In this document: positions 1 to 55,765 of the stretch, piece after piece | Position numbering within the stretch: position 1 is the first letter of the stretch | Layout: every line of letters begins with the position of its first letter | Assembly: GCA_027482685.1 (NCBI GenBank) | Contig: JAIXVU010000001.1 | Location: 11-64,010, forward strand | DNA length: 64,000 nucleotides | Reading direction: 5' to 3' | Origin: a bacterium | GTDB lineage: Bacteria > Patescibacteriota > Minisyncoccia > Phycocordibacterales > UBA5272 | Made by a program: the position numbers and the translations under genes | Notes under the pieces: generated by a model | The model's database searches: none | What the model saw: only the letters and a program-made list of their open reading frames with translations | What the model was told of the DNA's origin: nothing

Positions 1-63
1 TAGGGATCGAACCTACGACCAACGCGTTAACAGCGCGCTGCTCTACCGCTGAGCTATCACGGA
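1..63 (-). tRNA. tRNA-Asn (anticodon GTT), truncated at window edge
   Basis: Reverse complement reads TCCGTGATAGCTCAGCGGTAGAGCAGCGCGCTGTTAACGCGTTGGTCGTAGGTTCGATCCCTA. It has an acceptor 5' strand, D-arm GCTC/GAGC, anticodon stem GCGCG/CGCGT with loop CTGTTAA, and a T-arm GTAGG-TTCGATC-CCTAC. The 3' acceptor strand lies outside the window. Confidence 0.85.
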
Positions 64-2352: not shown

Positions 2353-3240
2353 CTAATTCATGTATCCACGCTTAAAATCTTCCCAAGATATTTCTTTTTT
2401 ACCTTCAGGGATTACAGTAAGAATAATATCTTGTACTGTTGCATCTCCTAATGTGTATGACGTTAGATCAACTCCAGTAATTTTTACCCGAATAGTTGTA
2501 CCGTGATGAGGGTAGAAGAAGTACAAAGATGGCCATGGGGTAAACGCACGGAATTTACGTCTCACAACATCTGCACTTTCAGTAAGTGATATTTCACCCA
2601 TTGATTTTTCTATTTTTTTACAATATGTTGCCTTGGTGTGATCTTGTTCTTTTGGAATCAGATTTTTGGCAATGTAACTTTCAAGCACATTACTTAGCAG
2701 GTCGCCACCTAGTTGCCCGCATGCTACTTCAAGAGTTCCGGCAGTAGCGTTAGCATCTATCATAAAGGCATTTTGAATAAGGATAGGTCCATGGTCAACC
2801 TCTTCATCAAGTTTCATAATAGTGACACCGGTTGTCATATGTCCGTCAAGAAGTACTGATTCAATAGGGGAGGCTCCGCGATACAACGGCAAAAGCGATG
2901 GATGTACGTTTAGCGTCCCATGTTTCGGGATTGCGAGAAGTTTCTCTGGGATTATCTTGCCATAACTTGCAACAATGAATACATCAAACTGTTGTGTATG
3001 AAGCGGAGATGTATCTGGTAGTTCACGTAGAGATTCGGGTTGGTAGACAGGTATACCTTGTAGCTCTGCCCATACTTTGATATGAGGTGGAGTGAGTGTC
3101 ATGTGACGACCTTGTGGTGCGTCTGGTTTTGTAACAACAAGAGCTGGAGGGTATCCGTTACGAACAAGAGACGCAAGCACACTCTCAGCAAGAGCTCCTG
3201 TACCGAAGAATGCATATGAGATAGAAGAAGTGTTCGACAT
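2353..3240 (-). CDS. fmt: Methionyl-tRNA formyltransferase
   Basis: N-terminal FFGTGALAE, the formyltransferase core NVHPSLLPLYRGASPIE and a C-terminal Fmt domain. Paired with def on the same strand. Confidence 0.9.
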   Translation of the reverse strand: MSNTSSISYAFFGTGALAESVLASLVRNGYPPALVVTKPDAPQGRHMTLTPPHIKVWAELQGIPVYQPESLRELPDTSPLHTQQFDVFIVASYGKIIPEKLLAIPKHGTLNVHPSLLPLYRGASPIESVLLDGHMTTGVTIMKLDEEVDHGPILIQNAFMIDANATAGTLEVACGQLGGDLLSNVLESYIAKNLIPKEQDHTKATYCKKIEKSMGEISLTESADVVRRKFRAFTPWPSLYFFYPHHGTTIRVKITGVDLTSYTLGDATVQDIILTVIPEGKKEISWEDFKRGYMN

Positions 3241-4066: not shown

Positions 4067-4615
4067 TTACTTTGCTGCATTCCTCACTTCCTCCTCTGTA
4101 AATTCTTCTAAATCAAACCCATGATCAACAAAAAGTATCCCGTCTAAATGATCTATCTCATGTTGAAAGATATGTGCGATTAATCCAGATGCACCATAGG
4201 TGAATTTCTTGCCATTCTCATCGTAGCTTTCGATCGTTGCGCTTATCACACGCTTGGTCTTTCCATATATCCATCTCACTGAGAGACAGCCTTCTTGCAT
4301 TACGGCAGTTTTTTTTGATGCTTTTATAATTTTCGGATTGATAAACACAAGAGGTTTAGATTTAGCTGTCTCAGGATATGCATTAGGGGAGACAACAAAG
4401 ATGCGAAGTGACACACCTATCTGAGGGGCAGCAAGGGCGACACCGTCCTTTTCACGTGCAAGAGCCTTATGCATATTCTTCAAGACTTCAGAAAGATATG
4501 GAGAGTTGTATTCATCTTCTGTTACTTCTCGAGCAATAGCGCGCAGTGGGTTATCTGGAACATCGTCTATCTGAATAATAGAGGTTGGTACTTTTTGGAC
4601 TTTTTTGGTCGTCAT
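4067..4615 (-). CDS. def: Peptide deformylase
   Basis: Motifs GxGLAAPQIG, EGCLS and HEIDHLDG are present. Start chosen at MTTKK; the ORF track begins 9 codons earlier. Confidence 0.9.
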   Translation of the reverse strand: MTTKKVQKVPTSIIQIDDVPDNPLRAIAREVTEDEYNSPYLSEVLKNMHKALAREKDGVALAAPQIGVSLRIFVVSPNAYPETAKSKPLVFINPKIIKASKKTAVMQEGCLSVRWIYGKTKRVISATIESYDENGKKFTYGASGLIAHIFQHEIDHLDGILFVDHGFDLEEFTEEEVRNAAK

Positions 4616-4665
4616 GATACGTGTATATGTGCATTCTATCATATAGGTCTTTGTGCTACCATTGT

Positions 4666-5577
4666 CATATGACTAGAGATGTATCACTCCATACACATAA
4701 ATCAATATGGAAGAAAAAGAACGTTAGTCTCCTTACTGTTCTTATAGTAAGTCTTACAATACTTGTACTCTGGTATCAGACATTTAGCACAGTCCCAACG
4801 CCGTATCAAGATACCTATGTTAGAGAGACAGGTAAAGATATCACATTTACCTACTGTGGAGAGACGTACAGTTCTATCTCAGTTCTCATCCAAGGGATTG
4901 ATATTGTTAAACGCTATGTATCTCTTACGGATGGAAAATATTTTGCATGTAAAGATTGGAATGAAGGACGAAAATCTGCAGGCATAGAGAGAATAGTGCC
5001 AACAGTTCTTCCTCTTGGTGAGGGTGTATATAAAATAGTTCTTTCTCGTGAGATTAGTGAAGGCGTGAGCAAGCCTTTTCTAATCTTCATAGTTACTACG
5101 AGAACTAATGAAATTCTGACAAATGATAGAGAGTTCATTGGTTCGCTTAGTGAACCTATTACCACATTTGATGAATGTCTCGCAACTAAAGGCTCGACAG
5201 GAACCTACACCGAGAAAGAGCAAGTATGTACCGCACCAGATGGACGGATCTTCCCTGATATAAGCAGTGATTGGTATATTTCACGAGAGTTTGTGTCTGT
5301 GTCTATTATCCCACGCATGACATATACGAACCCTCTTGTAGTTAAGGTTTTTAAGAAAATACCTGCTTCTGTAGAAGTTACTCTTGTTAGTCAAGGAGAT
5401 GAGCGAGTTTTAGGTGGAGGGATAGTACAAGCAACAACATCAGTTCCTGTTACGCTACTAACAGCGACAACAACATACCCATTTGGAGATAGTTTTGATG
5501 CTTTTGTTCTTATAAAAATACTCGATGATACACAACGAGAGTTTAGAATTCCGATTAAAGTTAACCTAGCTAAGTAG
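4666..5577 (+). CDS. Hypothetical membrane-anchored/exported protein (about 303 aa)
   Basis: N-terminal basic stretch plus TM (LLTVLIVSLTILVLWY), then an extracytoplasmic domain with several Cys. No known motif. Start chosen at MTRDV. Confidence 0.5.
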   Translation, partial: HMTRDVSLHTHKSIWKKKNVSLLTVLIVSLTILVLWYQTFSTVPTPYQDTYVRETGKDITFTYCGETYSSISVLIQGIDIVKRYVSLTDGKYFACKDWNEGRKSAGIERIVPTVLPLGEGVYKIVLSREISEGVSKPFLIFIVTTRTNEILTNDREFIGSLSEPITTFDECLATKGSTGTYTEKEQVCTAPDGRIFPDISSDWYISREFVSVSIIPRMTYTNPLVVKVFKKIPASVEVTLVSQGDERVLGGGIVQATTSVPVTLLTATTTYPFGDSFDAFVLIKILDDTQREFRIPIKVNLAK

Positions 5578-5591
5578 CATTTTTTGCTTGC

Positions 5592-7463
5592 CTAACCAAT
5601 AAAAAAATGAAGAGGGTTAATTATCGGTTTACCGTCATAGACAACTCTTTTAATTCTTTCACGAAGCGCTTGGTTGTGTGACCACTCAGACTCCTTAATG
5701 TGAATAAAAAGCAACGTTACTCCACGACCTTGCTCGAACCATTCTATGACATATGTGCCGAGCTCTTCTTCTATTTTATGTTTCATTTGATCTTGTAGAT
5801 TATCAAACGATGCTTTGATAACAGTGTAGTATGGTGGAAGTAAGAAACGCTCTCGTTCAGAAAGCAGTGTATCAAACACCTCACGAAACGATGGTGAGAT
5901 GAGTTGCTTAATGACTGGCAGATTTTTCATACGAGTTTGTAATATCATACGACCGCCACGACTACCATCACTTTTTTGTTTAACTTTTTCTGCCATCTCA
6001 GTTACAAGAGTCAGCACCTTCTCATCGTTTCTATATTCAGGAAGTGCAAAGAGTGAGTCAAGAGAAAGTATAACAATACCATCAGCATGAGTTACAACAT
6101 TATGAGCCATCTCAGTTCCAATTAATACACCATACTTGCTCTCAGTCCATTCTTTATATGTTTTTTTTATTTTCGCTCGTGTTGGTGTACGCTCACCATC
6201 AATAACAAAGAGAGGAATTCCTAGTCTTTGTAACTCTTCCTCTATTCCTGTTGTTGCGATACCGAGAGTTGTCATACGCCACCCTCCGCAATGTTTACAT
6301 GAGAGCGTGCTATCATCATCTAGTCTAATAATATTCTCACACCCATGACATACGTAGGTTCTAACTCCACCGATTTTGTGGAGAACATATGGGCGGTTAC
6401 ATGTAGAGCAGGTGAAGAGTAGCCCGCAGTCAGAACATACGGTCGTTGGGTACATTCCTTTTCTATGTGAGTAAAAGAAGTAATGACCGCTTTCATTGAG
6501 TTGCATCATGTGTAATAACGAGAGAGACTGTTTGCTCAGATAGGGACTGCTTGTTTTATTCTCATCTATCATAGGTACTATTGTTATGCCGGCATCATTT
6601 CTATATTGCATAGGCATGACCTCATTTGCATCACGTGTTTTATGTAGGAGATGCGCGTTTAGTGAGAGCATATGAGAACCAAGAAGGCAGGTAGTACTTG
6701 TTCCCTTACATAGCTCCATCAAAACAAATCTCATATCATACCCACCATCTCCATGTGTGTAATAGTAGTGGCTGTGCTCACGTTCAATAATGACTAGACC
6801 AAGATCAACTCTTACCCACGGGAGAAGTGAAGGGGTAGAAAGGATTAGCAGTGGGTGTTGATTAGTAAATAGTTCGTTTTGTGCTTCTGTATATTGTTTG
6901 TCTGTAAGTCCGCTATGAAGTGGGATAACATATTCATCTATTCCGCGAGACAGTTCATTCTTTGCACATTCAAGATCAGTGATCGTAGGGAAGAATATAA
7001 CGATTGACTGTTTCTTAGAAAAAGCTTCGCGTACTGTTGTTTTATAATGAGTGATGCGATGTGCGTAACTTTGTTCAAGAAGAAGGATTTCAAATCCACG
7101 AGGATTAATTTGTGGTTCTATTTTGGTAATAGAAGCAAATGATCTCTCTGAAATGAGGTCATAGAGTATAGTTCCAATTGGTCGAAGTAAGTAGGATGAC
7201 GTATACGAAAGTGCATTCCATAATTTTTGATGCAAGAATTCTTTTGTGATTGTTTTTGAAACTTTTTTGAGCCCAAATGATGCGTGACGGAGTGACTGAC
7301 GTTCTTCTTCTGCTTTTTCTGATGTAAGAACAAGAGCGCGCGAAATACGTCTCTTTATAGTTATCTCCACTAAGTCACCTGCGTGTATATCATCCCTTCC
7401 AAAGTAGGAAAGTTCTTCGTATGGAATGCCGCTTGCAAGTGGGGCTACAGTTACGACGCGCAT
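5592..7463 (-). CDS. priA: Primosomal protein N' (PriA) homologue with degenerate Walker A/B motifs
   Basis: PriA-type Cys-rich zinc ribbon (CSDCG...CSTCN...CHGCE...CKHCGG). N-terminal 3'-DNA-binding/winged-helix region. At the expected Walker A position the sequence reads LLLEQSYAHRITHY (no GxGKT). At the DEAH-box position it reads VIIEREHS. Confidence 0.75.
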   Translation of the reverse strand: MRVVTVAPLASGIPYEELSYFGRDDIHAGDLVEITIKRRISRALVLTSEKAEEERQSLRHASFGLKKVSKTITKEFLHQKLWNALSYTSSYLLRPIGTILYDLISERSFASITKIEPQINPRGFEILLLEQSYAHRITHYKTTVREAFSKKQSIVIFFPTITDLECAKNELSRGIDEYVIPLHSGLTDKQYTEAQNELFTNQHPLLILSTPSLLPWVRVDLGLVIIEREHSHYYYTHGDGGYDMRFVLMELCKGTSTTCLLGSHMLSLNAHLLHKTRDANEVMPMQYRNDAGITIVPMIDENKTSSPYLSKQSLSLLHMMQLNESGHYFFYSHRKGMYPTTVCSDCGLLFTCSTCNRPYVLHKIGGVRTYVCHGCENIIRLDDDSTLSCKHCGGWRMTTLGIATTGIEEELQRLGIPLFVIDGERTPTRAKIKKTYKEWTESKYGVLIGTEMAHNVVTHADGIVILSLDSLFALPEYRNDEKVLTLVTEMAEKVKQKSDGSRGGRMILQTRMKNLPVIKQLISPSFREVFDTLLSERERFLLPPYYTVIKASFDNLQDQMKHKIEEELGTYVIEWFEQGRGVTLLFIHIKESEWSHNQALRERIKRVVYDGKPIINPLHFFIG

Positions 7464-7650: not shown

Positions 7651-8664
7651 ATGGGATTTTTCTTCAAGAAACTCGGAATTGATTTAGGAACAGCAAACAC
7701 TCTTGTATATGTACCAGGGAAAGGTGTTGTACTTGTTGAGCCATCTGTTGTTGCGGTGTCACAATTTGATAACAAGATAATGGCCGTTGGAAGCGATGCA
7801 AAGGACATGATAGGGAAGACACCAGATTCTATCATTGCATATCGTCCTATGCGTGATGGTGTAATTGCTGACTATCGTGTTACAGAAGCGATGCTACGTT
7901 ACTATATTCATAAAGCACTTGGCGGGTTCGCGCTCTTTAAGCCTGATGTCATGGTATCAGTTCCAGCTGGGGTTACATCAACAGAAAGACGTGCAGTAAT
8001 CGAAGCTGCTCTTAAGGCTGGAGCTCGTAATGCATATGTTGTGAAGGAGCCAATCCTTGCAGCAATAGGTGCGGGGATCCCCATTCATGAGGCGCAAGGG
8101 CGTATGATAGTTGATATTGGAGGTGGGACCACAGACGTTGCGGTGATATCTCTTGGGGGTATCGTATGCAGTACATCAGTTAAGTGTGCAGGCAACAAAA
8201 TAGATCAAGCAATTATTGATTATGTTAAGAAGACCTATAATCTTGCAATAGGAGATCAAACTGCAGAAGAAATAAAGATACAAGTAGGAAGTGCATTGCC
8301 TGTAGAAGAAGAGCTTGTTATGAAAGTAAAAGGAAGAGACTTCATAGCAGGGCTTCCACGAACAGTAGAGATACGAACTAATGAAATTGTAAAAGCGATC
8401 GACAAGGAGTTGCGTGCGATGATAAAAGCAATCAAAGATGTTCTCCAAGAGACACCACCAGAGCTCGCTTCAGATATTATCGATAACGGTATCATCATGA
8501 GTGGTGGTTCATCAATGCTTAGACATTTCCCCGATCTCGTTCTACGTCGTACGGGGGTAAAGGCAGTCCTTGCTGACGATGCGTTCTTCTGTGTTGCAAA
8601 GGGGACTGGTGTTGCGCTTGAGCATCTAGACACGTACAAGCGCTCCATCTTCGCTAAGAAGTAA
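7651..8664 (+). CDS. mreB: Rod shape-determining protein MreB (actin-like), paralog 1
   Basis: GIDLGTANTLVY, DIGGGTTDVAV and actin-fold phosphate motifs. 337 aa. Confidence 0.9.
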   Translation: MGFFFKKLGIDLGTANTLVYVPGKGVVLVEPSVVAVSQFDNKIMAVGSDAKDMIGKTPDSIIAYRPMRDGVIADYRVTEAMLRYYIHKALGGFALFKPDVMVSVPAGVTSTERRAVIEAALKAGARNAYVVKEPILAAIGAGIPIHEAQGRMIVDIGGGTTDVAVISLGGIVCSTSVKCAGNKIDQAIIDYVKKTYNLAIGDQTAEEIKIQVGSALPVEEELVMKVKGRDFIAGLPRTVEIRTNEIVKAIDKELRAMIKAIKDVLQETPPELASDIIDNGIIMSGGSSMLRHFPDLVLRRTGVKAVLADDAFFCVAKGTGVALEHLDTYKRSIFAKK

Positions 8665-8947: not shown

Positions 8948-9622
8948 ATGAAATCTGTCATCACATTCTCTGAGATTCCTCCACATCATGCTGTGCTTAT
9001 GGTGCATAAAGAGAGAGGCGCCGTGGGCGCCTCTCTCTTTGACGAATTAAAAGAGTTGTCTCCGGTTCATAGATTCTTTGACCAGTCAGTTCTAGATATT
9101 GAGACAGCGAGATATATATCGTCGTGGTCTAACACTCCATACAGTGGAGAAAAAGTTGGGCTTATTTCCTTCAATACAGCTGGACTTGAAGCACAGAATG
9201 CTCTCCTTAAAGTTTTAGAAGAGCCAAGAGCAGGTGTACGCTTCATCATTATTACAACACACAGAGAGCACCTCATCCCAACAGTCTTATCAAGGCTTCA
9301 TCAGATGAATCTTACACAAGATGTTCTTCATGATGAGATGTATACAAAAGCTTACACATTTCTCACAACTCCAAAAGTTAACAGAATGAATCTCAAAGAA
9401 GTAAAATTGCTTCTTGAAGAAGAAGATGAAGAGGGACGCAAGAAACGCGAGTCCGTCAAGAGTTTTATCCTCGCACTTACTGATGTTTTGAAAACTGAAA
9501 ACAGTGAATCAAGATATATTCTTGAAACGTTAGAGTTCGCTTCATATGCATCTCGTCCTTCAACATCAGGCAAAGCGCTCATTGAGTACCTTGCTCTTCT
9601 ATTGCTAGAGATTAGAAATTAA
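8948..9622 (+). CDS. holB: DNA polymerase III delta' subunit-like clamp-loader protein (short form)
   Basis: AQNALLKVLEEP sensor motif and IPTVLSR, with no Walker A, fit delta'. 224 aa. An alternative TTG start is possible near 9055. Confidence 0.7.
   Translation: MKSVITFSEIPPHHAVLMVHKERGAVGASLFDELKELSPVHRFFDQSVLDIETARYISSWSNTPYSGEKVGLISFNTAGLEAQNALLKVLEEPRAGVRFIIITTHREHLIPTVLSRLHQMNLTQDVLHDEMYTKAYTFLTTPKVNRMNLKEVKLLLEEEDEEGRKKRESVKSFILALTDVLKTENSESRYILETLEFASYASRPSTSGKALIEYLALLLLEIRN
9008..9040. repeat. Palindromic hairpin aaagagagaggcgcc-GTGG-ggcgcctctctcttt embedded in-frame in the holB 5' region
   Basis: Core agaggcgccgtRggcgcctct is identical to the intergenic hairpin at 284-322. Here it encodes KERGAVGASLF inside the holB ORF. 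Confidence 0.6.
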
Positions 9623-36073: not shown

Positions 36074-37966
36074 ATGTCACTCACCGTAAATCAAATTCGC
36101 ACCAAATTCCTAAAATATATGGAAAGTAAAGGCCATGTTGTTGTTCCATCAGCGTCTCTTGTTCCTGAGAACGACGCAACAACACTTTTCACTGGTTCTG
36201 GTATGCAACCGATGGTGCCGTATCTCCTGGGACAGCCACATCCGCTTGGTGTTCGTATCACAGACTCACAAAAGTCATTCCGTTCACAAGATATCGAGGA
36301 GGTGGGAGACAATCGCCACACAACATTTTTTGAGATGTTAGGCAACTGGTCATTCGGTGATTATTTTAAAGAAGAACAAATTAGGTGGATGTGGGAGTTC
36401 CTCATTGATGAGCTTAAACTTGATCCTAATAACTTTTATATCACGTGTTTTGCAGGTAATGAGTCACTTGGCGTCAAGCGAGATACGTTCTCTGCAGAAT
36501 TATGGCAGAAGCTTTTTGCGCAGAAGGGTATTGATGCAAAAGTGAGCGATACACCAGAGAGTGGAATGAAAGATGGCGAGAAGATTTTCTACTACAATGA
36601 AAAGAAAAACTGGTGGTCACGTAGTGGAGTACCTGCTAACATGCCAGAGGGAGAACCTGGCGGACCAGATAGTGAGATGTTCTATGATTTTGATGCAACT
36701 GGTCAACAAAAGATTCACGAAACGAGTGCATGGAAGGATGTGCCGTGCCATGTGAACTGTGACTGTGGGAGATTCCTTGAGATAGGGAATAATGTATTCA
36801 TGCAATACAAGAAAGTTGCTGGAGGGTTTGAAGAACTACCACAGATGAATGTGGATCATGGGTCGGGGCTTGAGCGTTACGCAGCGGCACTACGTAATGA
36901 TCCAGATGTTTTCAATATCGACGTGTTTGATGAACCGAAGAAGATGATTGAGCGTTTGAGCGGAAAAGTATATGGTGAGTCAACAGAGGTAACCTACGCA
37001 TATCGTGTTGTGCTCGACCACATTCGTGCGGCAGTATTTCTTATTGGTGATGGAGTGTTGCCAGGGAACAAGGATCAGATGTACTTTGTACGTAGACTTC
37101 TTCGTCGCGCGGTACGATTTGCTCGTAACTTGGGCGTGCATGATAATTTTACTCGAGAAGTTGGAGCTTCTTTTATTCAAACATATAAGGTAGAGTACAC
37201 GCTGCTTGAAGAAAAGAGACAGGTGATTTTAGATGAACTCGAAAAAGAAGAGATGAAGTTCCGCAAGACTCTTGAGAATGGAATAAAAGAGTTCGAGAAA
37301 ATAGCAGATAAGAATATTAGTGGAGTAGATGCATTTAACCTCCTTCAGTCATTTGGGTTCCCAATCGAGCTTACAGAAGAGTTAGCAAAAGAACGTAATA
37401 TTACAGTTGATAGAGTATCCTTTGATGAAGAAAAGAAAAAACATAGTGAAGAATCTCGTACAGCAAGCGCTGGGAAGTTCAAAGGAGGACTAGGAGGGGA
37501 CGGTGAGATGGAGGTTAAGTATCATACCGCAACGCATTTGCTTCATGAGGTACTTCGCCAAGTGCTCGGTGATCATGTACTGCAGAAGGGAAGTAACATT
37601 ACATCAGAGCGATTACGATTCGACTTCTCTCACGGCGAGAAGATGACTGATGAGCAGAAGAAGCAAGTAGAAGATATTGTGAACAAAGTCATTGCAGATG
37701 ATTTACCTGTTCACCGCGAAGAAGTGAGTTATGATGAAGCTCGTGCACGAGGGGCAATAGGAGTGTTTGATGCAAAGTATGGCGATACGGTATCTATCTA
37801 TACCGTAGGTCGTGAGACTGGTACACGTGGTGGAGCGAATCTCTTCTCACTTGAATTCTGTGGTGGTCCGCATGTAGAGCACACAGGAGTACTCGGAACC
37901 TTCAAGATTACAAAAGAGGAGGCGGTATCAGCCGGTGTTCGCCGGATCAAAGCAATTTTATCCTAA
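36074..37966 (+). CDS. alaS: Alanyl-tRNA synthetase, C-terminally short form (630 aa)
   Basis: AlaRS catalytic N-terminus (FTGSGMQPMVPYLLG, WSFGDYFK). Editing-domain metal site HTATHLL...H and CGGPHVEHTG. Lacks the C-terminal C-Ala/DHHA1 region. Confidence 0.88.
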   Translation: MSLTVNQIRTKFLKYMESKGHVVVPSASLVPENDATTLFTGSGMQPMVPYLLGQPHPLGVRITDSQKSFRSQDIEEVGDNRHTTFFEMLGNWSFGDYFKEEQIRWMWEFLIDELKLDPNNFYITCFAGNESLGVKRDTFSAELWQKLFAQKGIDAKVSDTPESGMKDGEKIFYYNEKKNWWSRSGVPANMPEGEPGGPDSEMFYDFDATGQQKIHETSAWKDVPCHVNCDCGRFLEIGNNVFMQYKKVAGGFEELPQMNVDHGSGLERYAAALRNDPDVFNIDVFDEPKKMIERLSGKVYGESTEVTYAYRVVLDHIRAAVFLIGDGVLPGNKDQMYFVRRLLRRAVRFARNLGVHDNFTREVGASFIQTYKVEYTLLEEKRQVILDELEKEEMKFRKTLENGIKEFEKIADKNISGVDAFNLLQSFGFPIELTEELAKERNITVDRVSFDEEKKKHSEESRTASAGKFKGGLGGDGEMEVKYHTATHLLHEVLRQVLGDHVLQKGSNITSERLRFDFSHGEKMTDEQKKQVEDIVNKVIADDLPVHREEVSYDEARARGAIGVFDAKYGDTVSIYTVGRETGTRGGANLFSLEFCGGPHVEHTGVLGTFKITKEEAVSAGVRRIKAILS

Positions 37967-38630: not shown

Positions 38631-39014
38631 ATGAATCCATTCCTTAGTATCGCAGTTGGAGATATCGCAACACTCATTAACTATGTTGTTGATGATCATG
38701 TTATTGTGTCACACACGCATCCTATCGGGTACAAACACATAGAAGCAGATGGTATGAATCAGATAGCAGCGTCTAAATTTATTGATGGTGTACTCTACAC
38801 GCTTGAGTTCGTATCACTTCACGATAGAATACCTACACACTTTAGACTTGTATCACCGCGATATGCGATGTGGGTAGGGGAAGCTCTTGAGCAGGCATCT
38901 TATACACAGTTCTTTACTGATGGAGCACCTATAAGTGTTACACTAGAAGATACAGAAGCCGTTCCTCTTTTCTATGCAAGACATTCGCAAGCCATACACT
39001 CGTTCAAGATCTAA
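38631..39014 (+). CDS. Hypothetical protein (127 aa)
   Basis: ORF directly downstream of the heptad repeat tract. Overlaps the next ORF by 41 nt in another frame. Confidence 0.4.
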   Translation: MNPFLSIAVGDIATLINYVVDDHVIVSHTHPIGYKHIEADGMNQIAASKFIDGVLYTLEFVSLHDRIPTHFRLVSPRYAMWVGEALEQASYTQFFTDGAPISVTLEDTEAVPLFYARHSQAIHSFKI

Positions 39015-40428
39015 CCGTAATCTCTACGACAGGGTGGAGCAGTTTGAGTCGCGTCGCTATAGAGATGAAGATGAGAGACTTATTGATGATAGATACGATG
39101 ATGAGCCAGTTCGTATAGCACCGAAAGATGCACCGCGTGTTCGTCGCAATGTGGACCAGATGGAGATGTACCCGCTCAAACGTCGCTCAAGTGATGATGA
39201 GTATGAAAGAGAAGATGATAGGGATCAAGAAGAATCTCGTAGTAGTTTCTTCAATAAACGCCGTATACCAATAGATCGCGATCCTCGAACAAGGTACGCT
39301 AAGACACACTCTCTTAGAACATGGCTATTTATTCTCGGTCTTATTGTTATATGTGTGGTTGTATATATGTTCACGTATGTTTTTAATAAAGCGACAATTA
39401 CAGTTGTTCCTAAGTTTCAGGATGTTGAAGTAAAGAAGTCTGTAAACCTTTCACTTGCACCGACTGATAATCAAGTCAAGATTATTGTTGCGTCTACATC
39501 ACTTACTGCATCTAAACAGCTAGAGAAAACTGAAACCAAGAAAGTGGAAGCAAAAGCAAGTGGTAAAATTATTATTTATAACAACAACGATAGTGAGCCG
39601 CAAAGACTGATAAAAAATACTCGCTTTGAGTCTGCTTCTGGTAAAACATATCGTATTAGTGAGTCGGTAACTATTCCAGGAAAGTCAGGCGATAAGCCAG
39701 GAAGCTTAGAAGTAACTGTGTATGCTGATAGTTATGGAGCAGACTATAATACGAATCCGACAGACTTTACCATACCAGGATTTAAGGGGACACCGAGGTA
39801 TACAGCATTCTTTGGCAGGTCAAATGGCCCAATAACAGGAGGATCATCTGGTGAAGTGACATCCCCATCGATGGCAGATATAAATGCTGCAAAAGATTCT
39901 TTAGCTATGGAACTTGCTCCTAAAATTAAACAAAAGCTTCTTCAGGTAAAAGAAAAAGGATATACACCACTTTACTCAGCAGTTGAAGTAGTTTACAAAG
40001 ATAACGAAAAAGATATTCTCCAAGGTAACGCAACAACATATGAAGTTGTTGCAACCGGGTATCTTATGTTGGCTGACACCCAAGAACTTACAAAATCATT
40101 TGCAGATAGTATTCGTGATTATAACAATGAGCCATTTCGCCTAGGTAACGAAGAAAATCTAACGTACACCAAAAAAGAAGGAGATAGTGTCCTTACATCT
40201 CCATCAGTACAGGTCCTTGCTGAGGGAAGTCCTCGTATAATCTGGTCAACAGATGAAAATGAAATAAAGAAATTGTTTGCAGGTAAGAGTAAAAGTGAAT
40301 TCAAAACGCTCATGAACACCATCCCTTCAGTACAGCAAGGCGAGATATCCTTCTATCCATTATGGGTATCGACATTTCCAAAAGATGTAGAAAAGATTTC
40401 TGTTGTAGAAAAGCTACCTAAACGTTGA
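38974..40428 (+). CDS. Hypothetical bitopic membrane protein (484 aa)
   Basis: Charged Arg/Asp/Glu-rich cytoplasmic N-terminus (RRYRDEDERLIDDRYDDEP), one TM (LFILGLIVICVVVYMF) and a large extracytoplasmic domain. Confidence 0.55.
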   Translation: MQDIRKPYTRSRSNRNLYDRVEQFESRRYRDEDERLIDDRYDDEPVRIAPKDAPRVRRNVDQMEMYPLKRRSSDDEYEREDDRDQEESRSSFFNKRRIPIDRDPRTRYAKTHSLRTWLFILGLIVICVVVYMFTYVFNKATITVVPKFQDVEVKKSVNLSLAPTDNQVKIIVASTSLTASKQLEKTETKKVEAKASGKIIIYNNNDSEPQRLIKNTRFESASGKTYRISESVTIPGKSGDKPGSLEVTVYADSYGADYNTNPTDFTIPGFKGTPRYTAFFGRSNGPITGGSSGEVTSPSMADINAAKDSLAMELAPKIKQKLLQVKEKGYTPLYSAVEVVYKDNEKDILQGNATTYEVVATGYLMLADTQELTKSFADSIRDYNNEPFRLGNEENLTYTKKEGDSVLTSPSVQVLAEGSPRIIWSTDENEIKKLFAGKSKSEFKTLMNTIPSVQQGEISFYPLWVSTFPKDVEKISVVEKLPKR

Positions 40429-54284: not shown

Positions 54285-54358
54285 GATGGTTTCCTTGTAT
54301 GCGTAACCAGGTCATGATTCTATCAAAAATAAAAGTATTTTGCTATAATAAACGAACT

Positions 54359-55765
54359 ATGCGTACGTATATCAAAGATGTTTCAGCACATGTTGGAGAA
54401 GAAGTTACAGTAAAGTCGTGGGTGGATGTTCGTCGTGATCAAGGAAAAATGGTATTTCTCGATCTTCGTGATGTGTCTGGCAAAGTACAGGCAGTGGTAT
54501 TACCTAACCACACCGAGGCGCTTGAGGTTGCACAAAGACTCCGTACAGAATGGGTGGTTGAGGTAAGAGGTCTTGTGAATAAACGCCCAGAAAAAAATAT
54601 AAAAGCAGGTGTAGTAAACGGAGATGTAGAACTTGAAGTTCTTTCTATCGTTGTGCTAAATGAAGCAACTACGCCAAGCTTTGATCTCTCAACAGATGGC
54701 AAAGAGATAGGAGAGGAGGTACGACTTGAACACAAATATCTTGATCAGCGTCGTGCTCGTATACAGCATAATATCCGTACACGTCATAACGTTATCAAGT
54801 ATATTCGTAATTATTTAGATAAAGAGAACTTTATAGAAGTAGATACACCTCTCCTTACTAACCCAACACCCGAAGGGTCACGCTCATACCTTGTACCATC
54901 TCGTATTTATCCAGGAAGTTTCTATGCGCTACCACAATCACCTCAACAGTTCAAGCAGTTGCTCATGGTGGGAGGATTTGAGAGATACTTTCAGATTGCA
55001 AAATGTATGCGTGATGAAGATACGCGAGGGGATAGACAACCGGAGTTTACACAGATGGACCTTGAGATGAGTTTTGTTACAGAAGAGGATGTGATGAAGG
55101 TAAACGAAGGCTTACTCATCAAGCTCGTAACTGATCTTTTCCCAGAGAAGAGGATTCAGTCTGTACCATTTCCGCGTATCACGTACAAAGATGCGATGGA
55201 AAAGTACGGTAATGATAGACCAGATATACGAGAAGATAAGAACGACCCTAACCTCCTTGCTTTTTGTTGGGTTGTTGATTTTCCTTCGTTTGAAAAGACA
55301 GGAGCTGATAATGTCGATGATACGGGAGAGTGGACATTCACACATAATCCGTTCACAGGCCCAAAGAAGGAGTATCTTAATGACATGATGGAGAAGAAAA
55401 ATATTGGAGATATAATTTCTTCACAGTATGATATAACTTTGAACGGGTATGAAATTGGTGGTGGGGGTATACGCCTGCATAAGCCAGAAGAACTAAAGAA
55501 AGCATTTGAGATCATGGGGTACAGTGATGATCGTATCGAGCTTAACTTCGGCCACATGTTACGCGCACTCGGTGCCGGTGCACCGCCTCACGGAGGTATA
55601 GCGTGGGGACTTGATCGTCTACTTATGATACTTCTTAACGAACCGAATATTCGCGAAGTAATAGCATTCCCAAAGACTGGGGAAGGTCGTGACCTATTGA
55701 TGCAAGCACCGAGCAAGCCTAATCCAAAGGCACTGAAAGAACTAAAGATACAAGTGAAGGAGTAA
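54359..55765 (+). CDS. aspS: Aspartyl-tRNA synthetase (short form)
   Basis: N-terminal OB fold. Class II motif 2 FERYFQIAKCMRDEDTRGDRQPEFTQMDLEMSF. Motif 3 GGIRLH...GAPPHGGIAWGLDRL. Confidence 0.9.
   Translation: MRTYIKDVSAHVGEEVTVKSWVDVRRDQGKMVFLDLRDVSGKVQAVVLPNHTEALEVAQRLRTEWVVEVRGLVNKRPEKNIKAGVVNGDVELEVLSIVVLNEATTPSFDLSTDGKEIGEEVRLEHKYLDQRRARIQHNIRTRHNVIKYIRNYLDKENFIEVDTPLLTNPTPEGSRSYLVPSRIYPGSFYALPQSPQQFKQLLMVGGFERYFQIAKCMRDEDTRGDRQPEFTQMDLEMSFVTEEDVMKVNEGLLIKLVTDLFPEKRIQSVPFPRITYKDAMEKYGNDRPDIREDKNDPNLLAFCWVVDFPSFEKTGADNVDDTGEWTFTHNPFTGPKKEYLNDMMEKKNIGDIISSQYDITLNGYEIGGGGIRLHKPEELKKAFEIMGYSDDRIELNFGHMLRALGAGAPPHGGIAWGLDRLLMILLNEPNIREVIAFPKTGEGRDLLMQAPSKPNPKALKELKIQVKE

Follow-up and report, generated by a model that had tools for sequence, protein, structure and literature searches.

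In Escherichia coli, the PriA variant K230R (priA300) has lost ATPase, helicase and translocase activity, but restart by the PriA-PriB pathway is supported; the variants K230A and K230D likewise have none of these activities, and all three still assemble primosomes in vitro and are near wild type in vivo via this pathway (PMC5778457). The PriA protein of Deinococcus radiodurans, in which motifs I and II match poorly and the GKT lysine is changed to Arg, lacks ATPase and helicase activity and binds single-stranded DNA (ssDNA), fork DNA and DnaB (PMC4504706). This pseudohelicase is a lineage-wide trait of Deinococcus-Thermus, organisms from which recognisable PriB and DnaT are absent, and its proposed role, which involves neither ATPase nor helicase activity, is fork binding and direct recruitment of DnaB (Lopper et al. 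2015, PMC4504706). The same 2015 survey of PriA comprised 100 sequences from 18 phyla and predates most genomes of the Candidate Phyla Radiation (CPR) (PMC4504706). Here, a priA-like gene at positions 5592-7463 was investigated in a 64,000-nucleotide stretch of contig JAIXVU010000001.1 from a bacterium of the Patescibacteriota; this whole stretch is referred to as the window. An initial annotation had predicted a helicase-dead PriA at this site. We estimate at about 0.75 the probability that the encoded protein of 623 amino acids (aa) is the orthologous PriA of this organism turned pseudohelicase, with a role in restart without ATP. The pseudohelicase reading was reached because the modules for fork recognition and zinc binding are kept, the motifs contacting ATP are lost, the gene is under purifying selection and its locus is orthologous.

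While a natural PriA pseudohelicase is already known from Deinococcus-Thermus, new here are its occurrence in a very large lineage of Parcubacteria, a fuller loss of motifs and a natural layout without the winged-helix (WH) domain. In the literature searched, nothing was found that links the loss of PriA motifs to CPR bacteria or Patescibacteria. The D. radiodurans protein had been named as a precedent in the initial annotation, and this precedent is real and concerns the same Lys to Arg change (PMC4504706). The Deinococcus-Thermus proteins resemble the Parcubacteria family in this change, in their poor matches to motifs I and II and in the lineage-wide occurrence, but they belong to a distant lineage, and the Deinococcus protein has been assayed; in the Parcubacteria family, motifs III, V and VI and the aromatic-rich loop (ARL) are also lost, the WH domain is absent and the length is about 620 aa. 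From the taxonomic distance, an origin independent of the Deinococcus lineage was inferred. E. coli K230R shares with the window protein the Arg at the position of the Walker A lysine; however, the K230 variants are engineered single changes in an otherwise intact helicase with the partners PriB, DnaT and DnaC, which are not known from CPR bacteria, whereas the whole nucleotide site of the window protein, as read from its sequence, has been remodelled by evolution.

Canonical PriA proteins (structures 8fak, 4nl4 and 6dgd; family TIGR00595) have in common with the window protein the fold, the N-terminal 3′-DNA-binding domain (3′BD), motifs Ia, Ib and IV, the four CxxC pairs, the R..PP hinge and the C-terminal domain, but possess functional motifs I, II, III, V and VI, the ARL and the WH domain, all of which are absent here. 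As in many bacteria, Bacillus subtilis among them, the gene also adjoins def-fmt. The WH-deletion construct of E. coli PriA (6dcr) likewise carries the 3′BD directly on the helicase core, but is engineered and catalytically intact, whereas in the window protein the WH-less state is natural and is combined with a lost ATPase site. Another natural motif-poor lineage is possibly represented by the actinobacterial PriA proteins (PRK14873), for which UniProt/HAMAP notes a lack of detectable helicase motifs. The window protein does not belong to that subfamily, as indicated by its weak match to PRK14873 (E 3e-6 to 1.6e-3, compared with 7e-40 for the PRK05580/TIGR00595 models). A search for literature on mycobacterial PriA motifs yielded nothing specific.

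Fold and motifs of the PriA-like protein

The gene was found with the span, strand, start codon and length given in the initial annotation:

5592..7463, minus strand: priA-like gene, predicted PriA pseudohelicase; ATG start, 623 aa, stop codon at 5592-5594

To the NCBIfam models, the protein showed matches with TIGR00595 (priA; E 6.7e-40, residues 142-570) and NF004069 (E 1.7e-30, residues 12-568), and several PRK05580 'primosomal protein N'' models were matched with E values between 1e-16 and 1e-40. The score for TIGR00595 was 137 bits and did not reach the curated cutoff of 230 bits, the remaining NCBIfam PriA models were also far under their cutoffs, and a Pfam search with the window protein gave zero matches. 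When PDB sequences were searched with phmmer, PriA chains alone were matched (E. coli and Klebsiella; E about 4e-24), and a profile of the family matched PDB PriA with an E value of 3e-70, while identity to E. coli PriA was approximately 18-22%. An AlphaFold2 model built from 71 sequences had a mean predicted local distance difference test score (pLDDT) of 88.3 and a predicted TM-score (pTM) of 0.86. The best Foldseek match of this model in the PDB was fork-bound E. coli PriA (8fak_H; E 4e-37, query TM-score 0.75), followed by the WH-deletion PriA 6dcr_A and then by Klebsiella PriA 4nl4; other superfamily 2 (SF2) helicases, i.e. Mfd, DEAD-box proteins and RecQ, gave far weaker matches. The assignment as a PriA homologue was thus upheld by profile, PDB sequence and structure searches, and the PriA fold, an SF2 RecA-like core of two lobes into which a Cys-rich region is inserted, is kept as had been claimed.

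The motifs were located by reference to E. coli K-12 PriA (GSGKT at 227-231, DEEH at 320-323, GSATP at 355-359 and GRAGR at 583-587) in a MAFFT alignment of E. coli PriA, the query and 146 family representatives. An identical register was obtained from three alignments, namely MAFFT with E. coli PriA, the ungapped anchor Y140=Y234, which is consistent with the coordinates of the NCBIfam models, and the family profile against PDB PriA. The profile alignment starts at the invariant Arg of the family, which faces the Lys of GKT ('RlseYks' opposite 'KTEVYLS'), and sets 'IIerEss' against 'VIDEEHD'; the glycine-rich loop upstream of the Arg has no alignable counterpart. The following segments were degenerate:

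7041..7088, minus strand: motif I (Walker A), residues 126-141, ILLLEQSYAHRITHYK, with R136 at the lysine position
6729..6803, minus strand: motif II (Walker B) and remnant of the ARL, residues 221-245, including E227-R228-E229-H230-S231
6666..6680, minus strand: motif III, with GSHML replacing GSATP; the wider family consensus is GDxLLR
5982..6125, minus strand: segment of helicase lobe 2, with LIGTEM kept and motif V 'KGHHFP' and motif VI 'QVAGRAGR' lost

The Walker A lysine is replaced as predicted, in the sequence LEQSYAHRITHY at residues 129-140, where K230 corresponds to R136; the description of this change as a plain loss did not hold, since it is a Lys to Arg substitution. Over the whole motif, GVTGSGKT of E. 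coli became EQSYAHRI, with T231 replaced by I137 and the glycines G224, G227 and G229 by E130, Y133 and H135. Motif II was likewise found replaced, by IIEREHS at residues 225-231, but again not simply lost: DEEHD became EREHS, in which D320 is substituted by E227, the catalytic E321 by R228 and D324 by S231, while E322 (E229) and H323 (H230) are kept. Motif V of E. coli, LIGTQMLAKGHHFP, corresponds to LIGTEMAHNVVT in the window protein, and QVAGRAGR of motif VI is replaced by EMAEKV, so that the arginine fingers are gone. The ARL of E. coli PriA couples DNA binding to ATP hydrolysis, and its residues W333 and Y335 are essential (PMC5175346). In the alignment with E. coli PriA, these positions are occupied by G240 and Y242 in the window protein and by Pro or hydrophobic residues in the family consensus. 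In the AlphaFold2 model, the first core strand (residues 126-130) is separated by two residues from a helix starting at 133, compared with a P-loop of about eight residues, and the P-loop thus appears in the model to be reduced to two residues between strand and helix. Loose pattern scans for GK[ST], G.G[KR][ST], DExH, hhhD[DE], SAT and GRxGR gave zero matches elsewhere in the 623-aa protein; an intact GKT or DExH at another site, which would have contradicted the initial annotation, was not found. The losses of motifs III, V and VI and of the ARL, the absence of the WH domain and the clade-wide occurrence of the trait go beyond what had been annotated. Because of these motif losses and the E. 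coli K230R data, ATPase and helicase activity are probably absent.

The modules known from other PriA proteins for DNA binding and zinc coordination were retained to a large extent:

7149..7463, minus strand: N-terminal 3′BD, residues ~1-105 followed by a short linker, aligning to residues 1-105 of E. coli PriA
6444..6476, minus strand: retained motif IV, FYSHRKGMYPT (LFLNRRGFAPA in E. coli)
6288..6437, minus strand: Cys-rich region with two predicted zinc sites, four CxxC pairs, aligning to the E. coli Cys-rich region (CRR)
6309-6347, minus strand: ENIIRLDDDS-region insertion, PriA residues 373-385
5595..5831, minus strand: C-terminal domain, residues ~545-623, confidently modelled and shorter than that of E. 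coli

The 3′BD was modelled with pLDDT values of 80-96, and its residue Y20 is 99% conserved across the family. The corresponding Pfam domain PF17764 was detected in 47 of 56 diverse family members (best E value 4e-11), the window protein itself not being among the matches, and the C-terminal domain PF18074 in 5 of the 56. The claim of the initial annotation that the N-terminal DNA-binding region is kept was therefore only partly borne out: the 3′BD is present, but the WH domain (approximately residues 105-200 of E. coli PriA) has no counterpart in the query or the family according to the alignment, and the fold match to 6dcr agrees with its absence. In the alignment with E. coli PriA, motif Ia (PT/PE) and motif Ib (T210) are kept, and in motif IV, R334 and G336 are 98-99% conserved in the family. 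The Cys4-Cys4 residues of the predicted zinc ribbon are retained as annotated, with CxxC pairs at C343/346, C352/355, C372/375 and C389/392, and the eight cysteines are 95-100% conserved. Between the third and fourth of these pairs, the clade of the query carries the insertion of about four residues listed above, compared with the wider family. The hinge R537..P543-P544 is invariant, and the alignment to E. coli continues past R..LPP.

Conservation of the losses and of the priA locus

Whether relatives share the substitutions, as the initial annotation implied could be checked, was investigated in 120 close proteins, 146 aligned representatives and 78 genome copies, and the loss of the motifs was common to them. 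None of the 120 database proteins nearest to the query (full length, 66-75% identity) contained Walker A, DExH or motif VI, and the replacement residues EREHS.YY, R136, GSHML and EMAEK were invariant or near-invariant within this close clade, EREHS being invariant in all 120. A phmmer search over 1.84 billion cluster representatives yielded 631 matches below 1e-30, and Walker A and motif VI were absent from all of the best 150 of these. Of the 150, 146 were near full length (mostly 600-680 aa, with 27-45% identity) and were aligned; at the aligned positions none of them had motif I, II, III or VI, and they shared a consensus of their own, hhhQ...[DE][DE]R...YK and IIxE+ESS. Because the matches of the first profile were dominated by the clade of the query, a second profile was built from distant representatives alone. 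It recovered a further 96 family proteins with 553-892 bits, none of which carried Walker A or motif VI (QxxGRxGR). Canonical PriA proteins of 720-990 aa (P0423-P0432) scored at most 282 bits in the same search, compared with at least 553 bits for the family; DExH and motif VI were present in 10/10 of them and G[VI]TGSGKT in 9/10, together with the Pfam domains DEAD, Helicase_C, CRR and PriA_C. One of the 96 motif-less proteins, P0402, showed DEEH at motif II ('AYVLDEEHSS') and lacked motifs I and VI; this may be a relic or an intermediate state which could order the losses. The PriA copies extracted from related genomes were all without the motifs (78/78). In a neighbour-joining tree, 35/35 motif-less proteins formed one clade that contained no canonical PriA and in which the query was deeply nested. 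The motif-less trait is ancestral to a large clade of Parcubacteria and not specific to this genome. The features that mark the Deinococcus-Thermus proteins, a Walker A Lys to Arg change and poor motifs I and II throughout a lineage, are thus also found here, with R136 in 99% and Walker A in 0/120, 0/150 and 0/96 proteins.

Conservation over the diverse set was high for R136 (99%, rank 10 of 623), E229 (97%, rank 24), Y140 (95%) and E227 (79%, otherwise Asp), and R145, D243 and W395 were invariant residues specific to the family. Conservation was poor where the glycines had been, at the site of the catalytic Glu (position 228; R, K, H or N) and across motif VI. The high ranking of R136, E227 and E229 in conservation over the family indicates that the former active site is constrained and not drifting, as would be expected if the protein were still an ATPase or helicase with a non-canonical site, in which R136 would serve as the Walker A lysine, E227 as the Walker B aspartate and E229 as the catalytic base. 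However, K230R alone abolishes ATPase and helicase activity of E. coli PriA (PMC5778457; PMC4504706), and the window protein has moreover lost T231 and every one of the three glycines of the P-loop, with a two-residue loop before the helix in the model. The arginine fingers of motif VI are absent at positions that vary, motifs III and V and the ARL residues W333/Y335 are lost, and the position of the catalytic Glu is variable. With so many independent losses, activity through such a site is very unlikely.

When each GTDB species was represented by a single genome and these were scanned, at least 538 genomes contained a relative, and those with names belonged to Paceibacterota, Parcubacteria, Nomura-, Taylor-, Zambryski-, Vogel- and Yonathbacteria and Minisyncoccia. 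The source names of the family proteins were Candidatus Paceibacterota, Pacebacteria, Nomurabacteria, Wolfebacteria, Parcubacteria group and Patescibacteria group, and NCBI taxonomy placed named members in the Patescibacteria group and the Parcubacteria group. Many metagenome-assembled genomes (MAGs) from third-party annotation (TPA) were labelled 'uncultured Candidatus Saccharibacteria' (loci L009, L014-L016, L018-L022 and others). These labels were not used as evidence for a spread to Saccharibacteria; they are probably generic or wrong, because the PriA proteins concerned are 55-69% identical to that of the window, a protein of Paceibacteria/Nomurabacteria type, and synteny is the same.

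In the close clade, dN/dS was 0.03-0.2, with a median of about 0.12 over 99 unsaturated pairs, and the priA-like gene is under strong purifying selection. The annotation of many members as 'hypothetical protein' by NCBI would fit a decaying gene, a pseudogene or an artefact of assembly or annotation, but the open reading frames (ORFs) are intact and full length in hundreds of species, dN/dS is about 0.12, the model is confident and compact and the replacement residues are invariant. This explanation was rejected on the conservation data and dN/dS, and has next to no probability.

The genes next to priA are as follows, with the number of related loci in which each was found:

4067..4642, minus strand: def, for peptide deformylase, downstream of priA; matches TIGR00079 above cutoff (E 2.5e-38); 65/79 loci
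2353..3240, minus strand: fmt (methionyl-tRNA formyltransferase), third in the arrangement; TIGR00460 E 1.4e-66, above cutoff; 61/79 loci
7651-8664, plus strand: mreB, divergent from priA; E 6.5e-138; 70/79 loci
8948-9622, plus strand: short holB-like gene for a clamp-loader delta' subunit, 224 aa; 65/79 loci

Beyond mreB and the holB-like gene, priA is also divergent from frr. Of 79 related loci, 61-70 showed the frr-holB-mreB / priA-def-fmt arrangement, which persists even where identity is only 27-30%. The holB-like gene gave weak delta' matches (NF006296, 1.7e-20, below cutoff; Pfam DNA_pol3_delta2, 1.2e-11); with its product, this neighbourhood encodes two minimised replication proteins. 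A 318-aa ORF at 4621-5577 (plus strand) lies between priA and def; it has an N-terminal hydrophobic segment and zero Pfam or NCBIfam matches. A tblastn match to this ORF was obtained in 0/79 related loci, where def usually follows directly after priA, and the ORF looks like a genome-specific insertion into a conserved gene pair.

Some observations weigh against the pseudohelicase reading. The PriA assignment depends on E values, fold and synteny, since the protein has no Pfam match and lies under the NCBIfam PriA cutoffs. Arg 136 and the acidic residues 227 and 229 are kept, and it is possible, judging from these residues, that the site binds a nucleotide without hydrolysing it, or another anionic ligand. 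The view is also limited to 64 kb of the genome, which leaves room for a second, canonical PriA that would provide the helicase activity, the present gene being a degenerate paralogue. We consider such a paralogue very unlikely: in 61-65 of 79 genomes this copy sits at the conserved priA-def-fmt position, CPR genomes are small, and tblastn searches started from E. coli PriA and from the query revealed no second PriA-like gene within the 64-kb window. Furthermore, the named canonical match of the profile search came from Limnocylindrales, another phylum, while none of the matches with Patescibacteria names had intact motifs. No other helicase was found in the window, where a Walker A pattern was seen only in a GTPase-like ORF and, by chance, in mreB, and NCBIfam scans of 20 ORFs in the window revealed neither dnaB nor a helicase loader.

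The protein might also have left replication restart for another DNA transaction, as a structure-specific binding factor or regulator derived from PriA, with restart handled otherwise or not at all. Its strong divergence from canonical PriA, the absent WH domain, the invariant family-specific residues R145, D243 and W395 and the reduced CPR genomes, from which known PriA partners may be absent, would fit such a change of function. On the other side, the protein retains just those modules on which recognition of forks and assembly of the primosome depend (3′BD with invariant Y20, CRR and C-terminal domain), the gene occupies the ancestral priA position beside def-fmt and near a clamp-loader gene, and helicase-dead PriA is documented as restart-competent. 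A departure from restart is therefore judged unlikely.

Other genes of the window

The window consists of ordinary housekeeping chromosome with a GC content of about 40%. The following features were observed apart from the priA region:

1-63, minus strand: tRNA gene, truncated where the window begins; 49.7 bits to Rfam RF00005
24901-26373, plus strand: gene resembling class II photolyases; 475 bits to TIGR00591 (E 3.6e-142), just under the 550-bit cutoff
36074-37966, plus strand: short alanyl-tRNA synthetase, 630 aa, PRK01584 type
38974-40428, plus strand: ORF of 484 aa; GlxA beta-barrel domain match alone (6e-06), zero NCBIfam matches
54299-55765, plus strand: short aspartyl-tRNA synthetase, 488 aa
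55818-57068, plus strand: GH18 (chitinase-like) glycosyl hydrolase; Pfam 1.8e-29, zero NCBIfam matches

The photolyase-like gene suggests light-dependent direct DNA repair in a reduced CPR genome. The match of the aspartyl-tRNA synthetase to the bacterial model of about 590 aa is split in two, as though its sequence lacked an internal domain. The short aspartyl- and alanyl-tRNA synthetases are further examples of protein minimisation.

Replication restart and annotation of PriA in Parcubacteria

On the pseudohelicase reading, the 3′BD together with the DNA surface of the core would recognise abandoned forks. The 3′BD, motifs Ia, Ib and IV, the Cys-rich region and the C-terminal domain are the presumed source of ssDNA or fork binding and of DnaB binding, and the pseudohelicase would nucleate the renewed loading of DnaB, the replicative helicase, with neither unwinding nor ATP. 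Models for such a reloading are E. coli K230R in the PriA-PriB pathway and D. radiodurans PriA, which apparently binds DnaB directly. The sequence and model data thus support the scaffolding or recruitment role suggested in the initial annotation.

A Lys-Asp contact occurs in apo P-loop nucleoside triphosphatases. By analogy with this contact, the near-invariant R136 might form, together with E227 and E229, a permanent network of salt bridges that fills the former nucleotide-Mg site and fixes the arrangement of the lobes; this ion-pair network is a more speculative proposal. It could be extended to a former ATP site rebuilt into a conserved, ligand-free latch, by which the WH-less PriA would be held in a fork-bound, loading-competent state and would recruit DnaB alone, without ATP, PriB, DnaT or gating by a WH domain. 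We put this latch forward tentatively and regard it as doubtful. If it were true, no natural system of replication restart would be simpler, and this one would date back to the ancestor of much of the Candidate Phyla Radiation.

Annotation of the family was not uniform. Many members are labelled 'hypothetical protein' by the NCBI Prokaryotic Genome Annotation Pipeline (PGAP), because their scores fall under the NCBIfam PriA cutoffs, whereas the Joint Genome Institute (JGI) annotation is primosomal protein N'. Surveys based on cutoffs may wrongly score PriA, and with it replication restart, as absent in CPR bacteria.

Judging from the retained and lost motifs, replication restart in these Parcubacteria probably relies on a PriA able to recognise forks and unable to unwind DNA. 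The family amounts to a clade-scale natural experiment on the purpose of PriA, the outcome of which is in principle unsurprising. A naturally minimised PriA of about 620 aa would be a tractable model for how PriA delivers DnaB to a fork when PriB, DnaT and ATP play no part, and its occurrence strengthens the case that the core selectable function of PriA is fork recognition and helicase recruitment, not unwinding.

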